From assembly GCA_903916255.1 (NCBI GenBank), contig CAIWVW010000090.1, positions 2,229 through 66,228 on the forward strand: a stretch of 64,000 bases of DNA, given 5' to 3'. The number at the start of each line of letters is the position of its first letter. Position 1 is the first letter of the stretch. The notes beneath the pieces were generated by a model. That model saw only the letters and a list, made by a program, of their open reading frames with translations. It was not told the DNA's origin and made no database searches. Of this stretch, positions 12,943 through 23,204 are shown one piece after another. The position numbers and the translations under genes were made by a program. The stretch is from an uncultured Bacteroidota bacterium (GTDB lineage: Bacteria; Bacteroidota; Bacteroidia; JABEUT01).

Positions 12943-14277
12943 TTGAAAATGAGACGAGGACCCTTCAGGCTTAAATTTTTTATAAACCGCATAGTAAATG
13001 ATTTGCGGGTTGGGTTTCTTATCCGTCCATTGGTAATTGCTTTGTTAATAGGCGCTGCGGGTATGTATTTATCCACCTTGGAGGAGTGGTATCCGAACAT
13101 GCGGCACTGGATACCTACCATGCTTTTCCCAACTACGCAAGACCCTGCTGTGGCCCAGCTTGTGCTAAGCAATATAGCAACTGCCATGATGACGGTAGTA
13201 TCTATTGTATTTGCCATTCTGTTAATGACGTTAACGCTTGCATCTACGCAATTTTCGCCCCGCATCATTATAAGTTTTGTCCGCGACAGGGTTACCCAAC
13301 AAACCCTCGGCATATTTCTTGGTACGTTTCTTTATTGCCTCGGTTCATTGCCGGCAGCAAGGAATTTCCCAACTGCTTTTTGCCCGGTAGTAACGGTTTT
13401 TGGAGCTATGGTGCTGGCTTTTTTATGTGTTACATGGCTGCTGTTTTTCATTATTCATATTTCACGGGCAGTTAGCGTTACCCATTTGGTAGACCGTATT
13501 GCCCGCGAAACCGAAGAGATGATTATGCAGAACTTGCCTGAAATGCGAAAGGATAATGAGCCGGTTCAGAAAACAGTTCCTCCTGCACACCTTGACCAAA
13601 GCGGAACCCCTGTATTAAGTGAGGCTTCGGGCTATATTTTATTTATAGATACAGATAAATTACTTGCCATTGCCAAAAGCAACGATATCACTATTTACGT
13701 AGTAAGACGGGTAGGGCATTTTGTACCGGCAGGTATTCCGCTTCTTGGAATTAGTGGTAGCGGTAAATTAACACCTGAGTTGGAAAGGTCGTTGAAGAAA
13801 GCATTTCACATTGGCGCAACGCGTACCCTTGACGAAGATATAGAATTTGGAATTTTGCAAATTGTGGATATTGGACTGAAGGCCGTTTCCGCCGCATCGA
13901 ATGACCCAAGTACTGCCATTAATTGCATCGACCAGCTTAGCAGTATCCTTATCCGGTTTGCTATGCACCGTGCGCCACAAACGGATTTTTATTACCCTGA
14001 AAATACCTTGCGCCTTAGTGTTCCCTGGCTGGGTTTTGACCGTATATTGGAATCTGCATTCGAACAAATACGCCTCTATTCGCAAGCTGATGTGGCCGTG
14101 AGTCTGCGTTTGCTGCGTGCATTTATAGATATTGCTTCTACTTTACCGGATAGGGAATCACGTAAATTACTCGTTGAACAAGGTATCCGCCTTGTAAACG
14201 GCTGTTCGGAAAAACTGGCGGAAGAAGTACTGAAAGAAATGCATTCGCGCCTTGCAGCGCTTGAAAAGATGGCATAA
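12943..14277 (+). CDS. DUF2254-family predicted membrane protein
   Basis: 444 aa with N-terminal TM helices (LIRPLVIALLIGAAGMYL, MMTVVSIVFAILLMTLTL, and others) and a large soluble C-terminal domain, the pattern typical of DUF2254. Confidence 0.5.
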   Translation: MKMRRGPFRLKFFINRIVNDLRVGFLIRPLVIALLIGAAGMYLSTLEEWYPNMRHWIPTMLFPTTQDPAVAQLVLSNIATAMMTVVSIVFAILLMTLTLASTQFSPRIIISFVRDRVTQQTLGIFLGTFLYCLGSLPAARNFPTAFCPVVTVFGAMVLAFLCVTWLLFFIIHISRAVSVTHLVDRIARETEEMIMQNLPEMRKDNEPVQKTVPPAHLDQSGTPVLSEASGYILFIDTDKLLAIAKSNDITIYVVRRVGHFVPAGIPLLGISGSGKLTPELERSLKKAFHIGATRTLDEDIEFGILQIVDIGLKAVSAASNDPSTAINCIDQLSSILIRFAMHRAPQTDFYYPENTLRLSVPWLGFDRILESAFEQIRLYSQADVAVSLRLLRAFIDIASTLPDRESRKLLVEQGIRLVNGCSEKLAEEVLKEMHSRLAALEKMA

Positions 14278-14580
14278 GATTCCTTCGCTCACACCTCATC
14301 CTTGGTCTTCTCCTATGAGGCGAGGGTTGGTTGGCACGCGAAACTTAATGAGATTTCCCTCTCATGGTAGGAGAGGATAATCTGATGTCTTGGGCATAAA
14401 TAAACCGGCCGGCCTTTTGGGAATCCAAATGTTCCCCCACCATAAATATTATTTCATCATCGCAGGGGCCAACCCATGTGTCTGCCCAAAATCCGAAACG
14501 GATGTTCCCGCAATTTAAATGGATGTTTTGTTTTGTGGGCGGACACTTGGGGTTGCACTAATGTATTTGGTGTAATTATA

Positions 14581-14608
14581 TTTGGGCGGACATATATGTC
14601 CGCCCAAA
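14581..14608. promoter_or_regulatory. 28-bp perfect palindrome tttgggcggacatat/atgtccgcccaaa, part of a four-copy GGGC(G/A)GACA motif array
   Basis: Seen directly. Two further motif copies lie at 14478-14491 (reverse orientation, gtgtctgcccaaaa) and 14534-14546 (tgtgggcggacac). Confidence 0.5.
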
Positions 14609-14614
14609 CGAATA

Positions 14615-14647
14615 CCCGTTTTTACCCGTTATTTCCATAAAAAAATC
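14615..14647. repeat. Direct repeat copy 1 (cccgtttttacccgttatttccataaaaaaatc)
   Basis: About 28 of 30 positions identical to 18978..19008 (gccgtttttagccgttatttccatacaaatc). The pair brackets the SprB-repeat gene plus tRNA-Pro. Confidence 0.6.
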
Positions 14648-14675
14648 CCGCCTAAATAAATATTCAGGCGGGATT
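14639..14675 (-). terminator. Rho-independent terminator downstream of the SprB-repeat gene
   Basis: On the minus strand: aatcccgcc-tgaatatttattt-aggcgggat followed by TTTTTTT. This is an 8-9 bp GC-rich stem. Confidence 0.55.
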
Positions 14676-14697
14676 AATAAAGTGTATTGGTAATGGG

Positions 14698-17600
14698 TTA
14701 ATTCATTTTCACCACCTTCTTTTCATCTACCAAGCTGCCATCTTTGCCGAGTATGCGAATCAGGTAAATGCCGTTTGGTTGAGAGGACAAGTCAATTGTG
14801 AATGTTAATTGGTTAATGGTGAATTGTGAATACACCTTTTGCCCAAGGGTATTGTAAACCTCAACTGTCATTTGCCCACTACCCAATGCCGACTGGACAT
14901 TGAAAAGCCCATTGCTGGGGTTTGGGTATATATTCACCGAAGAGCCATTGCCGTTGACAGTAGCCACGCTGCTGGTGTTAGGTATTACCACGCAGACAGT
15001 TTGCGAGCAACCATTTGCATCGGTAACGGTGCAACAATAATCGCCCACACATTCGCCTTTAATGGTGTCGGTAGTGGCACCGCCGGGGCTCCACAGGTAG
15101 GTAAAGGGAGCGGTTCCGCCGCTAACCACTGTAACTGCAGCTTCTCCATTGCAACCACCAATTAAGGTGGAACTGATGGAATCAGCCGAAATAACCATTC
15201 CCGCAGGTTGTGTCAACGTAACCGCATCTATGGCCGTGCAACCATTGCTATCAGTAAGTGTTACCGTATATGTTCCTGCACTAAGGCCGGAAACAGTAGC
15301 ATTAGTACCTCCGCTTGGCGACCATGCATAGGTGTAAGGCAATGTTCCTCCCGAAGGAGCTGTGCTTGCGCTTCCATTGCTGTTTCCAAAGCACCCTGAA
15401 ACGGAAACTCCGCTAACGGCAATACTTAAGGTAGGAGGAAGTGTTATTGTTTCGGATGCGGTAGCTGTGCAACCATTGCTATCGGTGGCGGTAATGGTGT
15501 AAGTTCCAGCACCGAGTGTGGTAATGGTAGTTAGGTTAGTGCCGCCGCTTGGCGCCCAAACATAATTGTAAGGCGGTGTGCCGCCTGTAGCTGCCTGGGA
15601 AGAAATATAACCCATTCCGGCGCAAGCCAGGGTGGTTCGCGAAGCAATGGCAATATACAATGTTGTGCCCGACTGCGTTATAGTTACAGATGCGCTGGCA
15701 GTACATCCATTATTATCGGTTGCATTAATTGTATACGTTCCTGCACTCAGGTTAGAGGCCGTTAAGTTAGTGCCGCCGCTTGGCGCCCAGGCATATGTGT
15801 AAGGCCCTGTCCCGCCACTGGCGGGATTAGCAGTGGCGCTTCCCGAATTGGGAACACATAAAATATTGGTCTGCGATGCAATGTTTATTGCGACCGCCGT
15901 TGCAGGTTGTGTTACAGTTGCAGATGCAGTATCGGTGCAGCCATTGTTGTCGGTTACAGTAATCGTATAGCTACCTGCACTCAGGTTTGATGCGGTAAGT
16001 CCTGTGCCACCGCTGGGGGTCCAGTTATAGGTATAAGGAGCCGTTCCGCCGGAAGCTACAGTTGCGGTAATACTACCTGATGAATTGCCATTGCAGGCCA
16101 CATTGGTAATGGAAGCAATAGAAATTGCCACCCCATTAGCCGGTTGAGATATGGTAACCGATGCCGATGCCGTGCATCCGTTGTTGTCTGTTGCGGTAAT
16201 AGTGTAGCTGCCTGCACTCAGGTTAGATGCGGTAAGGTTTGTTTGTCCGCCCGGATTCCATACATAGGTGTAAGGCAAAGAACCACCGTTTGGCACATTA
16301 GCGGTTGCGCTTCCGTCATCAAGCCCGTTGCAGAGTACATTTATTTCTGAGGCGATAGTAATGGATAACGTATTCGGTTGTGTAATTGTTGCAGATGCTG
16401 TTGCGGTGCAACCATTGTTATCGGTAGCGGTAATGGTATAGGTTCCTGCACTCAGGTTGGAGGCTGTAAGTCCTGTGCCACCGCTTGGTGTCCAATTATA
16501 AGTATATGGGGATGTACCACCATTTGGAATATTCGCGGTAGCCGTTCCCGTAGGGCCGCCATTGCAAAGCACTCCTGTAACTGATTGGATGGTTATTGTT
16601 AATGCATTCGGTTGTGTAATTGTTACCGAAGCAGTCGCGGTACATCCGCTATTATCGGTAGCGGTAATAGTATATGTTCCCGCACTTAGGTTAGAAGCAT
16701 TAAGGTTCGTACCTCCACTTGGCGCCCAGTTATACGTATAAGGAGCCGTTCCGCCGGTGGCTGCATTAGCTGTTGCACTTCCGTTACTGTTTCCATTGCA
16801 AAGCAGGTCCGTCTGCGATGCGATTGTAATTGATAAAGCAGTAGGTTGGGTAATAGTTGCCGAAGCGGTTGCAATACACCCATTGTTATCGGTGGCGGTA
16901 ATGGTGTATGTTCCTGCACTAAGATTAGAAGCCGTAAGATTTGTTCCGCCTGAAGGTGTCCAGTTATACGTATATGGTGTCGCACCGCCAGTGGCTGCAT
17001 TTGCAGTTGCACTTCCTGTAGAGCTGCCATTACAAAGCACATTTGTTTGCGATGCGATTGAAATAGATAATGCAGTTGGTTGTGTAATAGTTGCCGAAGC
17101 TGTTGCGGTGCAACCATTATTATCTGTTGCCGTAATTGTATAGGTTCCGGCACTCAGATTAGAAGCAGTGGGATTTGTTCCGCCGCTCGGCGTCCAGTTG
17201 TAAGTATAAGGTGCTGTTCCGCCGGTGGCTGCATTTGCAGTAATACTTCCGGTGGAAGAGCCATTGCAAAGCACATTGGTCTGCGATGCGATTGAAATAC
17301 CCAATGTTGTGGGCTGTGTAATAGTAACTGAGGTAGTTGTTGTGCATCCCGAATTATCGGAAACGGTAACAGTATATGTTCCTGCACTAAGGGTAGAAAC
17401 TGTTTGCGCGGTATATCCATTCGGGTTCCAGGAGTATGTATAGGGTGTGGCTCCTCCTACAGGGTTTATGGTTGCACTGCCATTTGAATTTCCATTACAT
17501 AAAACATTGGAGTTAATTGTTGCCGTAGCTGTAAGCGTATTGGAAGTTGTCAGCGTAGCAGATGCTGTTCCCATACAACCCGTATGGTCGGTAACAGTAA

Positions 17601-18483
17601 TGGTGTAAGTACCCGCGCTTAAGTTGCTGGCTGTGGCATTTGTTCCACCCGATGGGCTCCAACTGTAGGTATAGGGGGTGGTTCCACCCGATGCGCTTGC
17701 CATAATAGACCCATTGCTGCCGCTACAGGTGGGGTTTGTTGTGCTTGAAATGGTAACGCTTACGCCGCATGGCGGAGGTTGAATGGCAACTAAAATTAAA
17801 GCGGCCCCATAGCTTGAATTGCCATCGGCCGCTGTAACGGTGTAAGAACCCGCAGTAGTAGCACTCGTATATGCCTCACCGGCATCTATACCATTGTTTT
17901 CATGGTAGCCGCCTTCCTCCAGTGCGCCTGTAAATGATAAATCCAATGAACTGTATGACCCTGTATTATATTCCGCAGTGGAGTAAATCATCGAGTTGGG
18001 TTCGGTTGTGGTTATTATATCCGAAACCGAATGGCTGCTTACACCCGTAGTGCTTTGTGTGGTAGTTAAATTAGATAAGCCAAGTGGCGTGCAACTGCCC
18101 GTAGAATAAAAAGCGGAGGCAAAATTCAGATTATACGATGCAGAGAAACCCGTTTCAACCACGACAATAGTATGAACCCCGGCCGCAGGTGCCGAATAAG
18201 CCCAAACCAAGGCTTCTCCACCATCGATAGTGGGAATACTTGAGCTGGCAACCTGCGTTGCAGGATTTCCATCTACCGTAACACTTCCCGTAAATGGCCC
18301 TTCCCATCCGTCGGTTGAAATGAGGATTAATTCATTGGAAAAAGCAGTTGATATAGTAAATGTGCTGGCTCCATTGCCTTGGGCCGACTGGTCATAGTTA
18401 ACGGTTCCATAACATTGCGCTTTTAGCGATGGGCTGATTGCTAATAATAATGCGGCAAATAAGAGTAGTAATGGTTTTCTCAT
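14698..18483 (-). CDS. T9SS substrate: giant cell-surface protein with about 12 SprB repeats and a type A Por/T9SS C-terminal sorting domain
   Basis: Signal peptide is followed by about 77-aa units such as LCNGSSTGSITANAATGGTAPYTYNWTPSGGTNPTASNLSAGTYTITATDNNGCTATASATITQP, which match the SprB repeat pattern. The C-terminus reads NIYPNPSNGLFNV...VEVYNTLGQKVYSQ...GIYLIRILGKDGSLVDEKKVVKMN, a type A CTD. Confidence 0.8.
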   Translation of the reverse strand: MRKPLLLLFAALLLAISPSLKAQCYGTVNYDQSAQGNGASTFTISTAFSNELILISTDGWEGPFTGSVTVDGNPATQVASSSIPTIDGGEALVWAYSAPAAGVHTIVVVETGFSASYNLNFASAFYSTGSCTPLGLSNLTTTQSTTGVSSHSVSDIITTTEPNSMIYSTAEYNTGSYSSLDLSFTGALEEGGYHENNGIDAGEAYTSATTAGSYTVTAADGNSSYGAALILVAIQPPPCGVSVTISSTTNPTCSGSNGSIMASASGGTTPYTYSWSPSGGTNATASNLSAGTYTITVTDHTGCMGTASATLTTSNTLTATATINSNVLCNGNSNGSATINPVGGATPYTYSWNPNGYTAQTVSTLSAGTYTVTVSDNSGCTTTTSVTITQPTTLGISIASQTNVLCNGSSTGSITANAATGGTAPYTYNWTPSGGTNPTASNLSAGTYTITATDNNGCTATASATITQPTALSISIASQTNVLCNGSSTGSATANAATGGATPYTYNWTPSGGTNLTASNLSAGTYTITATDNNGCIATASATITQPTALSITIASQTDLLCNGNSNGSATANAATGGTAPYTYNWAPSGGTNLNASNLSAGTYTITATDNSGCTATASVTITQPNALTITIQSVTGVLCNGGPTGTATANIPNGGTSPYTYNWTPSGGTGLTASNLSAGTYTITATDNNGCTATASATITQPNTLSITIASEINVLCNGLDDGSATANVPNGGSLPYTYVWNPGGQTNLTASNLSAGSYTITATDNNGCTASASVTISQPANGVAISIASITNVACNGNSSGSITATVASGGTAPYTYNWTPSGGTGLTASNLSAGSYTITVTDNNGCTDTASATVTQPATAVAINIASQTNILCVPNSGSATANPASGGTGPYTYAWAPSGGTNLTASNLSAGTYTINATDNNGCTASASVTITQSGTTLYIAIASRTTLACAGMGYISSQAATGGTPPYNYVWAPSGGTNLTTITTLGAGTYTITATDSNGCTATASETITLPPTLSIAVSGVSVSGCFGNSNGSASTAPSGGTLPYTYAWSPSGGTNATVSGLSAGTYTVTLTDSNGCTAIDAVTLTQPAGMVISADSISSTLIGGCNGEAAVTVVSGGTAPFTYLWSPGGATTDTIKGECVGDYCCTVTDANGCSQTVCVVIPNTSSVATVNGNGSSVNIYPNPSNGLFNVQSALGSGQMTVEVYNTLGQKVYSQFTINQLTFTIDLSSQPNGIYLIRILGKDGSLVDEKKVVKMN
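15480..17800. repeat. Tandem array of about 231-bp coding repeats (SprB repeat units) inside the adhesin gene
   Basis: Near-identical DNA repeats are visible, e.g. ggtaaggtttgt...ccgcccgg and similar stretches. They generate the spurious antisense ORFs listed in the track. Confidence 0.6.
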
Positions 18484-18792: not shown

Positions 18793-18867
18793 CGGGATGT
18801 AGCGCAGCCCGGTTAGCGCACACCCTTGGGGTGGGTGAGGTCGCGAGTTCGAATCCCGCCATCCCGA
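18793..18867 (+). tRNA. tRNA-Pro (anticodon GGG)
   Basis: Cloverleaf read by hand. Acceptor cgggatg/catcccg with the C1-G72 pair typical of tRNA-Pro. D arm gcgc-agcccggtta-gcgc. Anticodon stem caccc/gggtg with loop ttGGGgt. T arm gcgag-ttcgaat-cccgc. Discriminator A. No CCA is encoded. Confidence 0.85.
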
Positions 18868-18977
18868 CATTATTTTGAAAAAATTACCAGCCGAATAATA
18901 TTTTACCATCTGTAACGGTTATTTCTGTAAACAGGCCCGCGTAGGCGCTGATTTGCAATCAATGCCCAAATTCCATA

Positions 18978-19058: not shown

Positions 19059-22007
19059 TTACATATCATCCAAATTTATTGTTGTGAGCCTTTCCATTTG
19101 GGTTACTTCTATATACATAAAATCAAACTCCTCTTTCACTATCCCTTTCAGCAGGTAGCATCCATTCCCCTGAAAGGGATATTGCTTGGCTGCCTGAGGG
19201 AAATGTACCGTATCGAGCCAGTCGCCATTGGTATCAATAAATGTTCCAAAATACATGCGGTCGCCTTTGGCGGTGCGGGTATATTTTACGGTTACCAAAT
19301 ACCCAACAATAGCAACAGGTTTACCGAGCATGGCAGGCAGTTCTTTCGCTGTTAAACTGCTGGGCAGTTTTTCCTGTATAAGGTTAAAGTAGGGGCAAAG
19401 CGGAAAGCCGAGCAACTCGATTTCATCAAAGGCATCGTCCTGCCATTTGTCGGTTAGTTCCGGCAACTTATATTTACGTGCGCCAACATCAAAAAGCTCT
19501 TTGGCCTGATAAGAAACTTTGGCGGGCTTCACCAGCGAGTAGGCTTCCCAAAGCAGTTCTTTTTTATTCTTCCCAATAAACTGAAAAGCGCCTGCCCTGA
19601 TTAATAAACGCAGTTGTTCTATAGAAACCGGAACACGTTTTACGAAATCATCCAGGTTTATAAACGGGCCATTCTGATGGCGTTCTGTAAGCAGGTTTTT
19701 AATAACGGATGCCTCCAGTTCTTTTATCATACTTAAGCCTAAATAAATGTGTTCGCCTGCTATTTCATAAACCGACGAACTGTTGTTTACGCATGGCGGA
19801 TGTATTTTAGCGCCATGCATACGGGCTTCATGAACATAGAGTTCTGTGCGGTAAAAACCGCCGCCGTTATTAAGGGTAGCCACCATATACTCCAGCGGAA
19901 AATAGGCTTTCAGGTAAAGCGCCTGAAAACTTTCCACCGCATAACTTGCCGAATGTCCCTTCGAAAAGGCATAATTGGCAAAACTTTCAATCTGGTTCCA
20001 GATATTGGAAATGGTTTCAGTGGAGTATCCTTTTTTTATACAGTTTTTGAAAAAGTTATCCTTTACCCTGTCGAATTCATTACGCTGCTTGAATTTCCAA
20101 GACATTCCCCGCCTCAGGTAATCTGCCTCAGCCAGAGATAAGTCTGCAAAAAAGTGGGCCACTTTAATCACATCCTCCTGGTAAACCATTACTCCGTAAG
20201 TTTCTTTCAGCAATGCATACAATTCCGGTATTTCGTTCATCGCCTTTTCCCTTGCTTTTTCATCACGGTAGCGCAAAATATATTCCCGCATCATTCCGCT
20301 TTTCGATACGCCCGGGCGAATGATGGAACTGGCAGCCACAAGGCGCAGGTAATCGTCAGCCCGGAGCTTGGCAAGCAACATGCGCATAGCCGGCGATTCA
20401 ATATAAAAACAGCCAATGCATTTGCCGAGTTTTAATAAATTCTGGACTTTTTTGTCGGTTTTAAATTTCTGTATGTCATGAATGTCGATACTAACACCTT
20501 TATTTTTCTTAATGATGGCAAGAGCGTCTTTTATTTTTCCCAGGCCCCGCTGGCTAAGGATATCGAATTTATAAAGCCCAATATCTTCGGCTTCCAACAT
20601 GCTGAACTGTGTGGTAGGATAGCCTTTGGGCGGCATGAAAGTTGCACTGTAACAGGTAATGGGTTCCTGTGAAATAAGTATGCCGCTGGAATGGATGCTT
20701 AAGTGATTGGGAAATCCCTGGATGAGTTTGCTGTAAGTCAGCACCAATTTGCCCAGTGTATCCGGTTTGTTGTTTTCATGCACCGATTGCAGTTTGTCGA
20801 TTTCTTCGGGTGGCAAACCAAACACTTTGCCCAGTTCTCTTATTACGGCATCGTGCTGATAGGTATTGTAAGAGCCCAGCAGGGCGGTGTTTTTATTGCC
20901 AAAGCGTTCAAAAATGTAGCGGGTAATATCATCACGGTCAGTCCATGAAAAATCAACGTCGAAATCGGGAGGGTTGCTGCGCGAAGGATTAATGAAGCGC
21001 TCGAAATATAAATCCAGTTCGATGGGGTCTACATCGGTTATTCTAAGCAGGTAAGCCACCATACTATTAGCACCGCTGCCCCTCCCCACATAATAGTAGT
21101 CTTTACTTTGGGCGTATTTTATAATATCCCAATTGATAAGAAAATAAGAAGCGAATTTCATTTGCGCTATTATCTCCAGTTCTTTTTCCATTCGTTTGAG
21201 CACCTCGTCCGATGGAATTTTGTAGCGGTATTTCAAACCCTCCTCACATTCTTTGCGGAGCAGTTTCAGGTCGCCTTGTAACGTACCTGTATAGTAGGTC
21301 AGGTTTTTATTTGAGAACTTTCCATATTCAAATTCAATATGACATGTATTTAATATTTTTTCTGTATTAGCCTGTATTACCGGATACCCGGAATAGGCCG
21401 CATAAAGTTCCTCTTTGCAGGGTATTGTTTCATCAAGCGTTGCTTGTTCATAGGCAGGCAGTTTGCTCAGCAGAGTATTCAGGCTGATGGCCCTGAGCAG
21501 GCGATGTGCATTAAAATGTTTTTTAGAAATAAAAGATAATGACTGAAGTGCAACCTGTTTTTCCGGTTGTAGTTTGGCAGGGGAGAAAGGCAGCCTTACA
21601 AGGTCTTTCAAGGAAACTCCTATAAATTCATTTCCTCTTAACTTCCATCCTTTATATGTCTGCAAAGGGTATATTATAAATGCATTTTTAAATATTGGAG
21701 CGATGGGCTCAAAATCTTTTTTGCTGTGCAGGTGTTCAGAAAGGTGAATGTTCAGTTCGTTGAAACCTTCATTATTATTTGCTATGCCAACATACTGCTG
21801 ACGGATACCATTCCGGAAATCGATTCCTAAAATGGGTTTTATTCCTTTTTCATTGGCCAGCCTAACCATATCTATGCAGGCGGATGTATTATTAATATCT
21901 GATAATACAAACGAAGTGTACCCCTTTCCTGCTATTTCAGCCAGCAATTCGTTTACCGACAGGGTTCCATAGCCGAAGCTGTAATAGGTATGGCAATTAA
22001 GAAGCAT
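19059..22007 (-). CDS. dnaE2: Error-prone DNA polymerase III alpha-subunit homolog (DnaE2/ImuC-like)
   Basis: 982 aa. N-terminal PHP domain MLLNCHTYYSFGYGTLSVNELL...SDINNTSACID. The core carries the pol III alpha fingers/palm. It is too short for replicative DnaE and sits directly downstream of a Y-family polymerase gene. Confidence 0.75.
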   Translation of the reverse strand: MLLNCHTYYSFGYGTLSVNELLAEIAGKGYTSFVLSDINNTSACIDMVRLANEKGIKPILGIDFRNGIRQQYVGIANNNEGFNELNIHLSEHLHSKKDFEPIAPIFKNAFIIYPLQTYKGWKLRGNEFIGVSLKDLVRLPFSPAKLQPEKQVALQSLSFISKKHFNAHRLLRAISLNTLLSKLPAYEQATLDETIPCKEELYAAYSGYPVIQANTEKILNTCHIEFEYGKFSNKNLTYYTGTLQGDLKLLRKECEEGLKYRYKIPSDEVLKRMEKELEIIAQMKFASYFLINWDIIKYAQSKDYYYVGRGSGANSMVAYLLRITDVDPIELDLYFERFINPSRSNPPDFDVDFSWTDRDDITRYIFERFGNKNTALLGSYNTYQHDAVIRELGKVFGLPPEEIDKLQSVHENNKPDTLGKLVLTYSKLIQGFPNHLSIHSSGILISQEPITCYSATFMPPKGYPTTQFSMLEAEDIGLYKFDILSQRGLGKIKDALAIIKKNKGVSIDIHDIQKFKTDKKVQNLLKLGKCIGCFYIESPAMRMLLAKLRADDYLRLVAASSIIRPGVSKSGMMREYILRYRDEKAREKAMNEIPELYALLKETYGVMVYQEDVIKVAHFFADLSLAEADYLRRGMSWKFKQRNEFDRVKDNFFKNCIKKGYSTETISNIWNQIESFANYAFSKGHSASYAVESFQALYLKAYFPLEYMVATLNNGGGFYRTELYVHEARMHGAKIHPPCVNNSSSVYEIAGEHIYLGLSMIKELEASVIKNLLTERHQNGPFINLDDFVKRVPVSIEQLRLLIRAGAFQFIGKNKKELLWEAYSLVKPAKVSYQAKELFDVGARKYKLPELTDKWQDDAFDEIELLGFPLCPYFNLIQEKLPSSLTAKELPAMLGKPVAIVGYLVTVKYTRTAKGDRMYFGTFIDTNGDWLDTVHFPQAAKQYPFQGNGCYLLKGIVKEEFDFMYIEVTQMERLTTINLDDM

Positions 22008-22016
22008 GGAATAGCT

Positions 22017-23204
22017 TTAGGTTGTTCGCCCGTTAAAGGGATTAAAATCTCCGCGTTGCGATATTTTCATACCCACGGCTCGTTTCACAATATCGCGCCC
22101 GTAGCGGTTGCGCAACTTATCCATGGCCTGATAGAGCTGTATCTGCTCGGCCGTATCGTTAAAAATATCAAACTGGTAATTGCCATGCACCAAATGGCTG
22201 AAACGGATTCCGATAAGGCGGATGAGCATACGTTTCTGGTAAAGTTTGTCGAACAACTCTTTCACTTTATCGATAAGCGTATGGTCGAGCGAGGTATATC
22301 CAATACGCGACTGCATAGTGTAGGTGTTAAAATCTGAATAGCGTATTTTTACCGTTACACAGGATGTTAGTTTCTGTTCGCTACGCAATTGAAAGGCCAG
22401 TTTTTCGGTCATGCTTACCAGCATCGCTTTCAGGTAAGTCACATCTATTGTGTCTTTGTCAAAAGTGTTTTCCGTTGAGATAGATTTACGTTCGCTGTAT
22501 TGTTCCACAGGGCTGTTATCAATACCATTTGCCTTTTTCCATATTAATATACCATTTTCTCCCAGCACTCTTTCCATTAGTTCTATGGGCATGTCCTGCA
22601 TGGTCTTTACTTTTTCTATTCCCATGCTCCGCAGTATATGGTATGTTTTATCACCTACCATTGGTATCTTTTTAACCGACAGCGGAGCCAGAAATCCTTT
22701 TTCCGTTCCCGAACGAATTTCCTTTTGTCCATTGGGTTTGGCTTCTCCTGTGCCTACTTTGGCAACCGTTTTGTTGGTGGATAATGCAAATGAAATGGGC
22801 AGCCCCGTCTCTTTAATGATATTTTTCCGCAGTTCGGTGGCGAGTTTATAGCTGCCAAAAAAGCGTTCCATGCCCGTGAGGTCCATATAAAACTCATCAA
22901 TAGATGTTTTTTCATAAACAGGAACAGTTTCCTTTATAATTTCCGTAACCGTGTCTGAGTATTTGGTATATTGTTCATAGTCGCCCCGCACTATTATCGC
23001 ATGTGGGCAAAGCTGCCTTGCCATGCGCATAGGCATAGCCGAATGGATACCGAACCTGCGGGCCTCATAACTACAAGAAGCTACCACCCCCCGGTCGCTT
23101 GTGCCGCCCACTAATACAGGTTTCCCTAGTAAGGAGCTGTTGTGCAGCCGCTCTACCGATACGAAAAAAGTATCCATATCCATGTGTACAATCGTCCTTT
23201 CCAT
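22017..23204 (-). CDS. dinB: Y-family DNA polymerase (DinB/Pol IV-like, catalytic residues intact)
   Basis: MERTIVHMDMDTFFVSVE carries the catalytic DMD..F.SVE motif. SCSYEARRFGI and GIG..SHL motifs are present. It lies 9 bp upstream of dnaE2, so the two form a cassette. Confidence 0.75.
   Translation of the reverse strand: MERTIVHMDMDTFFVSVERLHNSSLLGKPVLVGGTSDRGVVASCSYEARRFGIHSAMPMRMARQLCPHAIIVRGDYEQYTKYSDTVTEIIKETVPVYEKTSIDEFYMDLTGMERFFGSYKLATELRKNIIKETGLPISFALSTNKTVAKVGTGEAKPNGQKEIRSGTEKGFLAPLSVKKIPMVGDKTYHILRSMGIEKVKTMQDMPIELMERVLGENGILIWKKANGIDNSPVEQYSERKSISTENTFDKDTIDVTYLKAMLVSMTEKLAFQLRSEQKLTSCVTVKIRYSDFNTYTMQSRIGYTSLDHTLIDKVKELFDKLYQKRMLIRLIGIRFSHLVHGNYQFDIFNDTAEQIQLYQAMDKLRNRYGRDIVKRAVGMKISQRGDFNPFNGRTT

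Follow-up and report, generated by a model that had tools for sequence, protein, structure and literature searches.

A convergent intergenic gap of an uncultured Bacteroidota bacterium probably holds a partly decayed cluster of GTAG-tagged REP hairpins

The DNA analyzed here, a 64-kb stretch from a contig of an uncultured Bacteroidota bacterium (hereafter the window), contains between two convergent genes a gap of 420 nt (14278–14697) that is crowded with repeated and palindromic motifs. We propose that the gap probably represents a cluster of GTAG-type repetitive extragenic palindromes (REPs) that has in part decayed and is organized much like a bacterial interspersed mosaic element (BIME), together with one older hairpin module. 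In the consensus unit of the family, GTAG stands unpaired as a tag ahead of a GC-rich stem of 8 bp (GGGCRGAC/GTCYGCCC), and the loop is CYATGT. The gap is homologous to intact units of this kind in other genomes, the units are dispersed, and their stem is selected for pairing.

A first-pass annotation, made from the letters of the window, had described in this gap a four-copy motif array that includes a 28-bp perfect palindrome, and both the sites and their coordinates hold. The motif GGGCRGACA occurs five times in the 64 kb against an expectation of 0.54, a count that none of 100 dinucleotide shuffles reached. Four of the five sites, at 14479(−), 14537(+), 14584(+) and 14597(−), lie in the gap, packed into 130 bp at roughly 7-fold the whole-window expectation, and the fifth (16244) falls within the SprB-like gene on the right. 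The sequences concerned are gtgtctgcccaaaa at 14478–14491, tgtgggcggacac at 14534–14546 and the palindrome TTTGGGCGGACATATATGTCCGCCCAAA at 14581–14608, the longest perfect palindrome of the window. On both strands the gap as a whole folds far better than its shuffles (z −6.6 and −5.3). What the annotation had missed is how these motifs are organized. A repeat finder places them as the arms of three partly palindromic repeats of about 25 nt, starting at 14466, 14537 and 14584, spaced by 71 and 47 nt, 64–76% alike and with one of them inverted. The repeated GGGCGGACA motifs are thus the stem arms of three hairpin units, not four independent sites. Also overlooked were a pair of 21-nt sub-repeats at 14496 and 14517 and a minus-strand terminator at 14644–14675.

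The units can be read in intact form at two homologous loci, on related Bacteroidota contigs that we call L131 and L136, where the homologous DNA (71–80% identity) is non-coding. L131, which is 423 kb long, carries both a 71% identical orthologue of the SprB-like protein and the closest relative of the DUF2254 protein encoded to the left of the gap. Window 14294–14506 matches L131 14244–14039 at 71% identity, with short matches in the motif array continuing to L131 13879, and the L131 stretch is non-coding. Over the wider alignment (A1; window 14270–14700 against L131 14330–13850) the mean column identity is 74%, with exact runs of 13–18 bases. The block shared by the two spans window 14294–14612 (71–74% identical to L131 13880–14250) and stops right after the last palindrome. 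L136 was found in a metagenome scan with the conserved two-block pattern, and its positions 360–624 are about 80% identical to window 14412–14605. The neighbourhood is of a different kind in the relatives: the element is flanked on one side by an RRM_1 RNA-binding protein gene in L131 and directly follows the RRM_1 terminator in L136, and the RRM_1 gene and its neighbours are absent from the window.

A three-way alignment (A2) gives a common order, in which the hairpin module TTTCCCTC..GGAGAGGGTAGGGTGAGGTCTTC.GGGCGTAAATAC is followed by tandem units and then by one inverted unit. The tandem period in L136 is about 72 nt (the first two units start at 409 and 482, 73 nt apart) with a spacer of about 46 nt, and the first two units of the window start 71 nt apart. 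A sub-repeat in the spacer, ATTCGCAACGGATGTTT, is present in three to four copies in L131 and in two in L136. In both L131 and L136 the first unit reads GTAG-GGGCAGAC-CCATGT-GTCTGCCC on one strand, and the last reads GTAG-GGGCGGAC-CCATGT-GTCCGCCC-AAAT on the other. All of them match GTAG-GGGCRGAC-CCATGT-GTCYGCCC without a mismatch, the tags point outward, and the first and last units of each locus differ by one compensatory A-T to G-C swap. Unit number varies across the three genomes (3, 4–5 and 4).

The same unit lies in DNA with no relation to this locus. In the contigs L137 and L134 it is found upstream of a glycogen-phosphorylase gene, where it is followed by GTAG-headed hairpins with other stems. 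We then scanned IMG/VR with the 22-nt hairpin GGGCRGACCYATGTGTCYGCCC, using a pattern that also permitted two non-complementary R/Y combinations. The scan returned 35 stretches (L138–L172) with 47 matches in 42 distinct contexts, with the consensus GTAG-GGGCRGAC-CYATGT-GTCYGCCC. The four bases ahead of the hairpin were GTAG in 34 contexts, GTTG in four, ATAG in two and TAGG in one, with the remaining one cut by a contig end. Stem position 5 was complementary, either A-T or G-C, in 42 of 42 contexts, and mixed pairs did not occur; since the pattern allowed non-complementary combinations and none was found, this serves as an internal control for pairing. The flanks of these copies are unrelated, and the GC content of the contigs ranges from 35% to 68%. 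As one 26-nt hairpin recurs on phage contigs over such a range, it is conceivable, though a long shot, that some enzyme of single-stranded DNA uses it across phyla and that it is not a REP tied to one lineage. Up to five copies of the unit lie within 12 kb of L146, hairpins with a GTAG head and other stems occur near the IMG/VR units, and in L143 a pair of units flanks a 346-aa ORF that is capsid-like by eye only. A looser palindrome, TGGGCRGACA-N2-8-TGTCYGCCCA, searched in genome contigs, gave among the matches listed generic hairpins of all phyla. In Prevotella contigs the same stem sits in a longer repeat, AAAAA(A/C)CAAA-TGGGCGGACATTGTYGTGTCCGCCCA-TTGTTGTTAT, seen in L049 (4262 and 5100, hence twice within 840 nt), L058 (7895) and L111 (3302). 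The literature search found no paper on the unit sequence or its translated peptide.

These features can be held against what is published on such repeats. GTAG-tagged REPs have stems of 6–13 bp, short loops and an unpaired terminal GTAG that is sometimes degenerate or GTGG, and their stem variants are compensatory (PMC3733652). They lie mostly downstream of ORFs, between convergent or unidirectional ones; dimers are common, head-to-head or tail-to-tail and 20–100 bp apart, and clusters consist of units and flanking DNA reiterated in tandem (PMC3733652). The search rule of Quentin et al. 2018 asks for GTAG or GTGG located 0–2 nt 5′ of a paired G/C-rich basal stem of at least 7 bp (PMC6006769). 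The consensus unit has a stem within the 6–13-bp range, with at least three G/C in the first four basal pairs. GTAG stands at the required place in the orthologous L131 and L136 units and in 34 of the 42 dispersed copies. The gap of the window is convergent, and the L131 and L136 clusters lie downstream of RRM_1. Compensation in the stem extends to all 42 copies, and the same swap is seen within L131 and within L136. Finally, close spacing, an inverted partner, tandem reiteration that includes the spacer, and shared spacer sub-repeats are what is expected of a BIME. The units of L131, L136, L137 and the viral contigs therefore fit the published rules, and the window copies fit them partly. On this evidence the miniature mobile-element remnant, one of the possibilities raised by the first-pass annotation, gains support, with the units being decayed copies of a dispersed GTAG-tagged REP family; other occurrences of the motif and its conservation in relatives were both found.

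The anatomy of the gap is collected in Table 1. Of the three window units, only the inverted one still folds by itself. Unit 1 folded alone retains no hairpin (z about −0.5, −0.47), and unit 2 keeps its left arm intact, has lost its right arm and forms no hairpin either (z +0.40). Unit 3 has a perfect stem of 11–14 bp (−21 to −22.5 kcal/mol, z about −6). An 87-nt hairpin at 14468–14554 (−37 kcal/mol, z −3.8) joins the right arm of unit 1 to the left arm of unit 2. In place of GTAG the units carry GCAG (unit 1), a GTGG that overlaps the stem (unit 2) and GTTT (unit 3). By comparison with the relatives, the 28-bp palindrome of unit 3 would have arisen when the tag went from GTAG to GTTT, and so came to pair with the conserved AAA on the 3′ side, and the loop changed at two positions. 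No T-run adjoins it on either side (flanks ACGAAUACCC and AUAUAAUUAC), and in the terminator scan it is not an intrinsic terminator. The single site returned by that scan is the minus-strand one at 14644–14675, whose hairpin (−21.2 kcal/mol, z −6) lies outside the conserved element. The DUF2254 gene has no canonical terminator of its own. Two further short hairpins had been noted on the left. Both are real inverted repeats, and it is their folding that does not bear the description out: cctcat/atgagg (14294–14299/14315–14320) folds no better than shuffles (z −0.76), and cctctc/gagagg (14358–14363/14371–14376) only marginally so (z −1.85), yet the latter is conserved in the relatives.

Table 1. 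Features of the convergent gap and its flanks, in window coordinates
Feature	Position	Strand	Evidence or remark
DUF2254 membrane protein gene, left flank	12949..14277	+	Pfam PF10011, E 6e-101
Conserved block CCTCATCCTTGGTCTTCTCCTATGAGGCGAGGG, leftmost in element, weak hairpin	14294..14335	+	aligned to L131 14250-14205, identical runs of 13 and 10 bases
Module A, hairpin TTTCCCTCTC/GAGAGG then ..GTCTTGGGCATAAATA	14348..14403	+	conserved in L131, twice in L136
REP unit 1, decayed, GCAG-GGGCCAAC-CCATGT-GTCTGCCC	14462..14487	+	3 mismatches to consensus GTAG-GGGCRGAC-CYATGT-GTCYGCCC
Spacer with 21-nt direct sub-repeats AAACGGATGTT (14496) and AAATGGATGTT (14517), T-rich tail GTTTTGTTTTGT	14488..14532	+	repeat family D7
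REP unit 2, decayed, (GTGG)GGGCGGAC-ACTTGG-GGTTGCAC	14533..14558	+	9 mismatches to consensus, in-register alignment
REP unit 3, inverted, GTTT-GGGCGGAC-ATATAT-GTCCGCCC-AAAT	14581..14609	-	contains perfect 28-bp palindrome 14581-14608; hairpin unit at 14584-14609
Intrinsic terminator of SprB-like gene, 14-pair stem then TTTTTTT	14675-14637 (stem 14644-14675)	-	terminator scan
SprB-repeat protein gene, 1261 aa, type IX secretion system (T9SS) C-terminal sorting domain, right flank	14698..18483	-	Pfam PF13573 and PF18962

Several observations weigh against the assignment to GTAG-type REPs. First, the window units depart from the type: the tag, if GTAG or GTGG is asked for, has decayed in two of the three, and units 1 and 2 have lost the folding of their stem. 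The 6-nt loop of the unit also exceeds the 2–5 nt of one published rule, unless the C.T-interrupted extension is counted. Second, many copies per genome were not seen in the sampled DNA. Beyond the gap, neither the remaining 63.6 kb of window sequence nor 33 kb from the closest relative yielded a further copy. As sampled, then, the family in these two genomes is of low copy number or restricted to this locus, whereas classical REPs run to hundreds of copies. Third, a Pfam scan of 34 window ORFs turned up no gene for a REP-associated tyrosine transposase (RAYT), a gene that usually has REPs on its flanks, and a scan for the HuH...Y motif of these enzymes over all DNA analyzed gave none. Fourth, the cluster has been kept at 71–80% identity, against 77–83% for coding DNA, which could reflect selection for a host function.

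Module A, to the left of the units, is an older hairpin module that is separate from the REPs. Its core stands directly after the RRM_1 terminator in L173–L175, contigs that have no REP cluster; variant forms occur in L176–L178, the module is duplicated in L136, and a pattern scan did not find it in viral contigs. As Module A indicates, the gap of the window would be a translocated piece of the mosaic that follows RRM_1 in the relatives. That mosaic, seen in L173 (4340–4440), L176 (4987–5100) and L177 (643–800), is made of short C/T-rich and G/A-rich hairpin modules, CCCTCTCC..GGAGAGGG then GGGTGAGG, whose number and order differ among contigs. Between RRM_1 and GldD of L131 (15372–15422) there is in addition a perfect 24-bp stem with a 3-nt loop, GTGCAGGGTGGTCAAGGCGCGGGC aaa GCCCGCGCCTTGACCACCCTGCAC. 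Elsewhere in L131 (1011–1064 and 4030–4106) a second hairpin family, CAAACCCC-TAAAG-GGGCTTTG, forms two inverted pairs, which suggests that the lineage carries more than one REP-like family.

The gene context of the window is that of Bacteroidota, with FeoAB, SprB repeats, T9SS and TonB receptors. An exact look-up found no identical copy of the window's DUF2254 protein on record. Its relatives are 80–91% identical, and their contigs share DUF4190, FeoB, FeoA and DUF2254 in the upstream part. Downstream of DUF2254 the relatives (L120–L130) carry Acyl_transf_3, PMT_2 or TMEM175, none of which is present in the window, and nucleotide homology with the closest relative (81%) ends exactly at the DUF2254 stop codon, 14277. 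The left edge of the gap is for these reasons a rearrangement junction. On the right, an ENA contig carries a 100% identical copy of the SprB-like protein; its neighbours there are the same, and the gap is likewise 420 nt long. A conspecific assembly, ERZ1426558, has a gap of 374 nt, 46 nt shorter. A frameshift as the cause of the shorter gap was ruled out by stop codons in the alternative frame. An 8-nt direct repeat, CATAAATA, occurs at 14395–14402 and 14441–14448, exactly 46 nt apart; a 46-nt indel is the more likely account of the difference, with this repeat as a candidate route for slippage.

From these observations a history of the locus can be proposed. The units would at first have been dispersed as hairpins of single-stranded DNA, with a RAYT processing them, as established knowledge of REPs suggests, and would then have been amplified in tandem along with spacer DNA, the outermost unit being inverted such that the tags face out. 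In the window the tags have mutated, two units have lost one arm each, and the third has become the 28-bp palindrome by changes in flank and loop. The window copies, now without tags, are probably immobile relics, and judging from REPs in general their remaining effects would be passive. It is common for REPs to be transcribed within the 3′ part of an mRNA. Transcripts of the DUF2254 gene would enter the array and the stable unit 3 before reaching the SprB terminator, and, if the cluster is transcribed from that side, it may supply 3′ stem-loops that hinder read-through and exonucleases between the convergent genes. The array would thus suit 3′-end stabilization or the insulation of the two genes from each other. 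As DNA, the cluster may be a fragile, recombination-prone spot.

Breakpoints do lie at the edges of the cluster in all three genomes: at the left edge in the window, at the right edge in L131, where an RVT_1 insert is found, and after the cluster in L136, again with an insert. In L131 (11910–13772) the SprB terminator is separated from the REP cluster by a gene for an RVT_1 reverse transcriptase (384 aa) and a 71-aa ORF; the boundary of the two falls exactly on the outer edge of the last REP unit, and both are absent from the window. In L136 the REP cluster and two small overlapping ORFs, one of 94 aa and one of 71 aa that matches DUF2683 weakly, lie between the copies of a direct repeat of about 140 nt (175–320 and 1259–1400), which is made up of the last codons of RRM_1, the terminator and the Module A hairpin. 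By its layout, the two-ORF segment looks like an inserted toxin-antitoxin-like cassette.

Among the other explanations of the gap, an independent structured small RNA, or a processed 3′-untranslated-region RNA, within 14290–14640, acting for example by titrating an RNA-binding protein, is unlikely. It would account for the folding of both strands well above shuffles and for the conservation of the element across three genomes; the repeated 21-nt units carry GGAUG, and the element adjoins RRM_1 in L131, L136 and L173–L178. Yet the RRM_1 gene is not in the window, the hairpins of window units 1 and 2 are lost, and unit number is variable among genomes. The Rfam scan of the gap that the first-pass annotation had suggested found no family at the gathering threshold, and noise only at E values up to 10 (best match 26 bits against a threshold of 97). 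At gathering score the window as a whole gave two tRNAs only, no match appeared in the L131 homologue at E up to 0.1, and no tRNA or tmRNA was found in the gap. As for a start site, TATATTTG at 14577–14584, the one Bacteroidetes-type −7 box apparent by eye, is not conserved in L131. No promoter conserved between the homologues was found, and a sigma-70 scan gave one weak minus-strand match inside the palindrome, not above shuffles. A dispersed repeat in unrelated contexts also explains the structure without a dedicated RNA gene, and the unannotated small RNA that had been suggested for the gap is unsupported. A small protein from the 54-aa ORF at 14476–14640 was ruled out, as the motif copies are in different frames.

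It is also possible to see in the palindromes the core sites of a tyrosine recombinase (11-6-11, Xer/dif- or att-like) and in the locus a landing pad for cassettes, a reading that we hold to be quite improbable. The 28-bp palindrome does parse as 11-6-11, the RVT_1 gene and small ORF abut the last L131 unit exactly, a small two-gene cassette with direct repeats of about 140 nt follows the L136 cluster, and in the window synteny is lost at the left edge. Against this, no recombinase gene was seen in the window ORFs examined or beside the inserts, and no GC-skew switch crosses the window. The dif core is ATAA/TTAT, and the arms are unlike it (a comparison by eye, not a model score). Instead, the GTAG tag is in keeping with REPs, as are the single copies found dispersed. 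The breakpoints need no dedicated system, given that REPs are known hot spots of recombination and insertion (PMC3733652). An Xer/dif site proper was ruled out: there are several copies, not one, no skew switch and a core unlike dif. The lack of a skew switch likewise excluded a replication terminus or origin. A related thought, and a distinctly long shot, is that the mosaic downstream of RRM_1 acts as a dedicated insertion hot spot, with GTAG hairpins as recombination or priming sites for the gain and loss of small accessory cassettes; the reverse-transcriptase gene of L131, the toxin-antitoxin-like pair of L136 and the DUF2254 junction of the window are what it fits.

A binding array on duplex DNA, with operators or iterons for a transcription factor or replication protein and 21-nt repeats two helical turns apart, is highly improbable, although direct repeats of 21 nt and palindromic half-sites are both present. 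The array faces the 3′ ends of both genes, where there is no promoter for it to act on, and no GGGCRGACA-type motif lies upstream of any gene of the window. The compensatory A-T/G-C swaps in the stem, across 42 contexts, keep pairing and not base identity. The conservation of stem complementarity together with an unpaired GTAG tag points to a single-stranded hairpin rather than a duplex operator, and it leaves the transcription-factor sink or array of the first-pass annotation without support. An NrdR-box reading of the palindrome was ruled out by eye against the consensus. Lastly, a chance build-up of GC-rich hairpins in neutral junction DNA after a rearrangement is hardly credible: synteny does break at the gap on its DUF2254 side and generic TGGGCRGACA...TGTCYGCCCA hairpins are found in all phyla, but homology over about 320 nt in two other genomes, the 7-fold enrichment concentrated in 130 bp, and units in the relatives that match the dispersed consensus exactly, tag included, contradict it.

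If the gap is a decayed REP cluster, as we think probable, then an empty-looking 420-bp convergent gap would be accounted for by a REP/BIME-type cluster plus a terminator, and the four-copy motif and the 28-bp palindrome would need neither a regulator nor an RNA gene. The feature is real, conserved and, in that case, ordinary. It also bears on the distribution of these repeats. In the 2013 catalogue of Di Nocera et al., Proteobacteria, Cyanobacteria, Chloroflexi and PVC have GTAG repeats, and Bacteroidetes CGTC repeats only (PMC3733652); subclass 2.4 RAYTs with canonical REPs have since been described in Bacteroidetes (Quentin et al. 2018, PMC6006769). Here a canonical GTAG-tagged unit is found in a Bacteroidota lineage, and many phage-like contigs, whose base composition differs widely, carry it in identical form. 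Furthermore, the cluster marks a site that has been rearranged or given a different insert in three related genomes, which fits the view of REP clusters as fragile sites.

A second difference between the window and L131 lies beyond the SprB-like gene. Beside tRNA-Pro(ggg) (18793–18868), the minus strand of the window (19059–23204) encodes an IMS/ImuB-like Y-family polymerase (22017–23204) and a DnaE2-type polymerase (19059–22007). These genes lie between the tRNA and a TonB-receptor gene, and in L131 tRNA-Pro stands directly beside the receptor gene. The absence of this mutagenesis cassette from that place in L131 points to an insertion, or to a loss in the relative, beside a tRNA gene.

Compared with known systems, the locus shares with CRISPR arrays the partly palindromic repeats of about 26 nt and a period of about 72 nt. 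Unlike in such arrays, the spacers are related and conserved, the repeats are heterogeneous with one inverted, and there are no cas genes. The units gave no match to Rfam CRISPR-DR families, and a CRISPR remnant was ruled out, as the spacers are homologous to one another and between genomes and one repeat is inverted. Rho-independent terminators, of which the hairpin at 14644–14675 is a textbook case, are similar in having a stable GC-rich hairpin that ends a transcription unit, whereas the 28-bp palindrome has no U-tract on either strand. REPINs, the hairpin-forming REP doublets, resemble the locus in that two inverted REPs with a spacer of tens of bases pair their arms into a long hairpin; they are near-identical doublets that multiply as one unit to many copies (Bertels and Rainey 2011, cited in PMC3733652), and here we find one locus with three to five heterogeneous units, whose spacer itself holds direct repeats. 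Classical REP families exceed 100 copies per genome, and in the 64 kb of the window none lies outside the gap. The closest likeness is to GTAG REPs and BIMEs. Although the window tags are mutated, two units are broken and no RAYT was seen, the locus and these elements have in common a GC-rich stem-loop, in the intact units a 5′ unpaired tag, compensatory stems, a position 3′ of ORFs or between convergent genes, inverted pairs with the tags outside, the tandem reiteration of unit and flank, and a unit that recurs in distant organisms.

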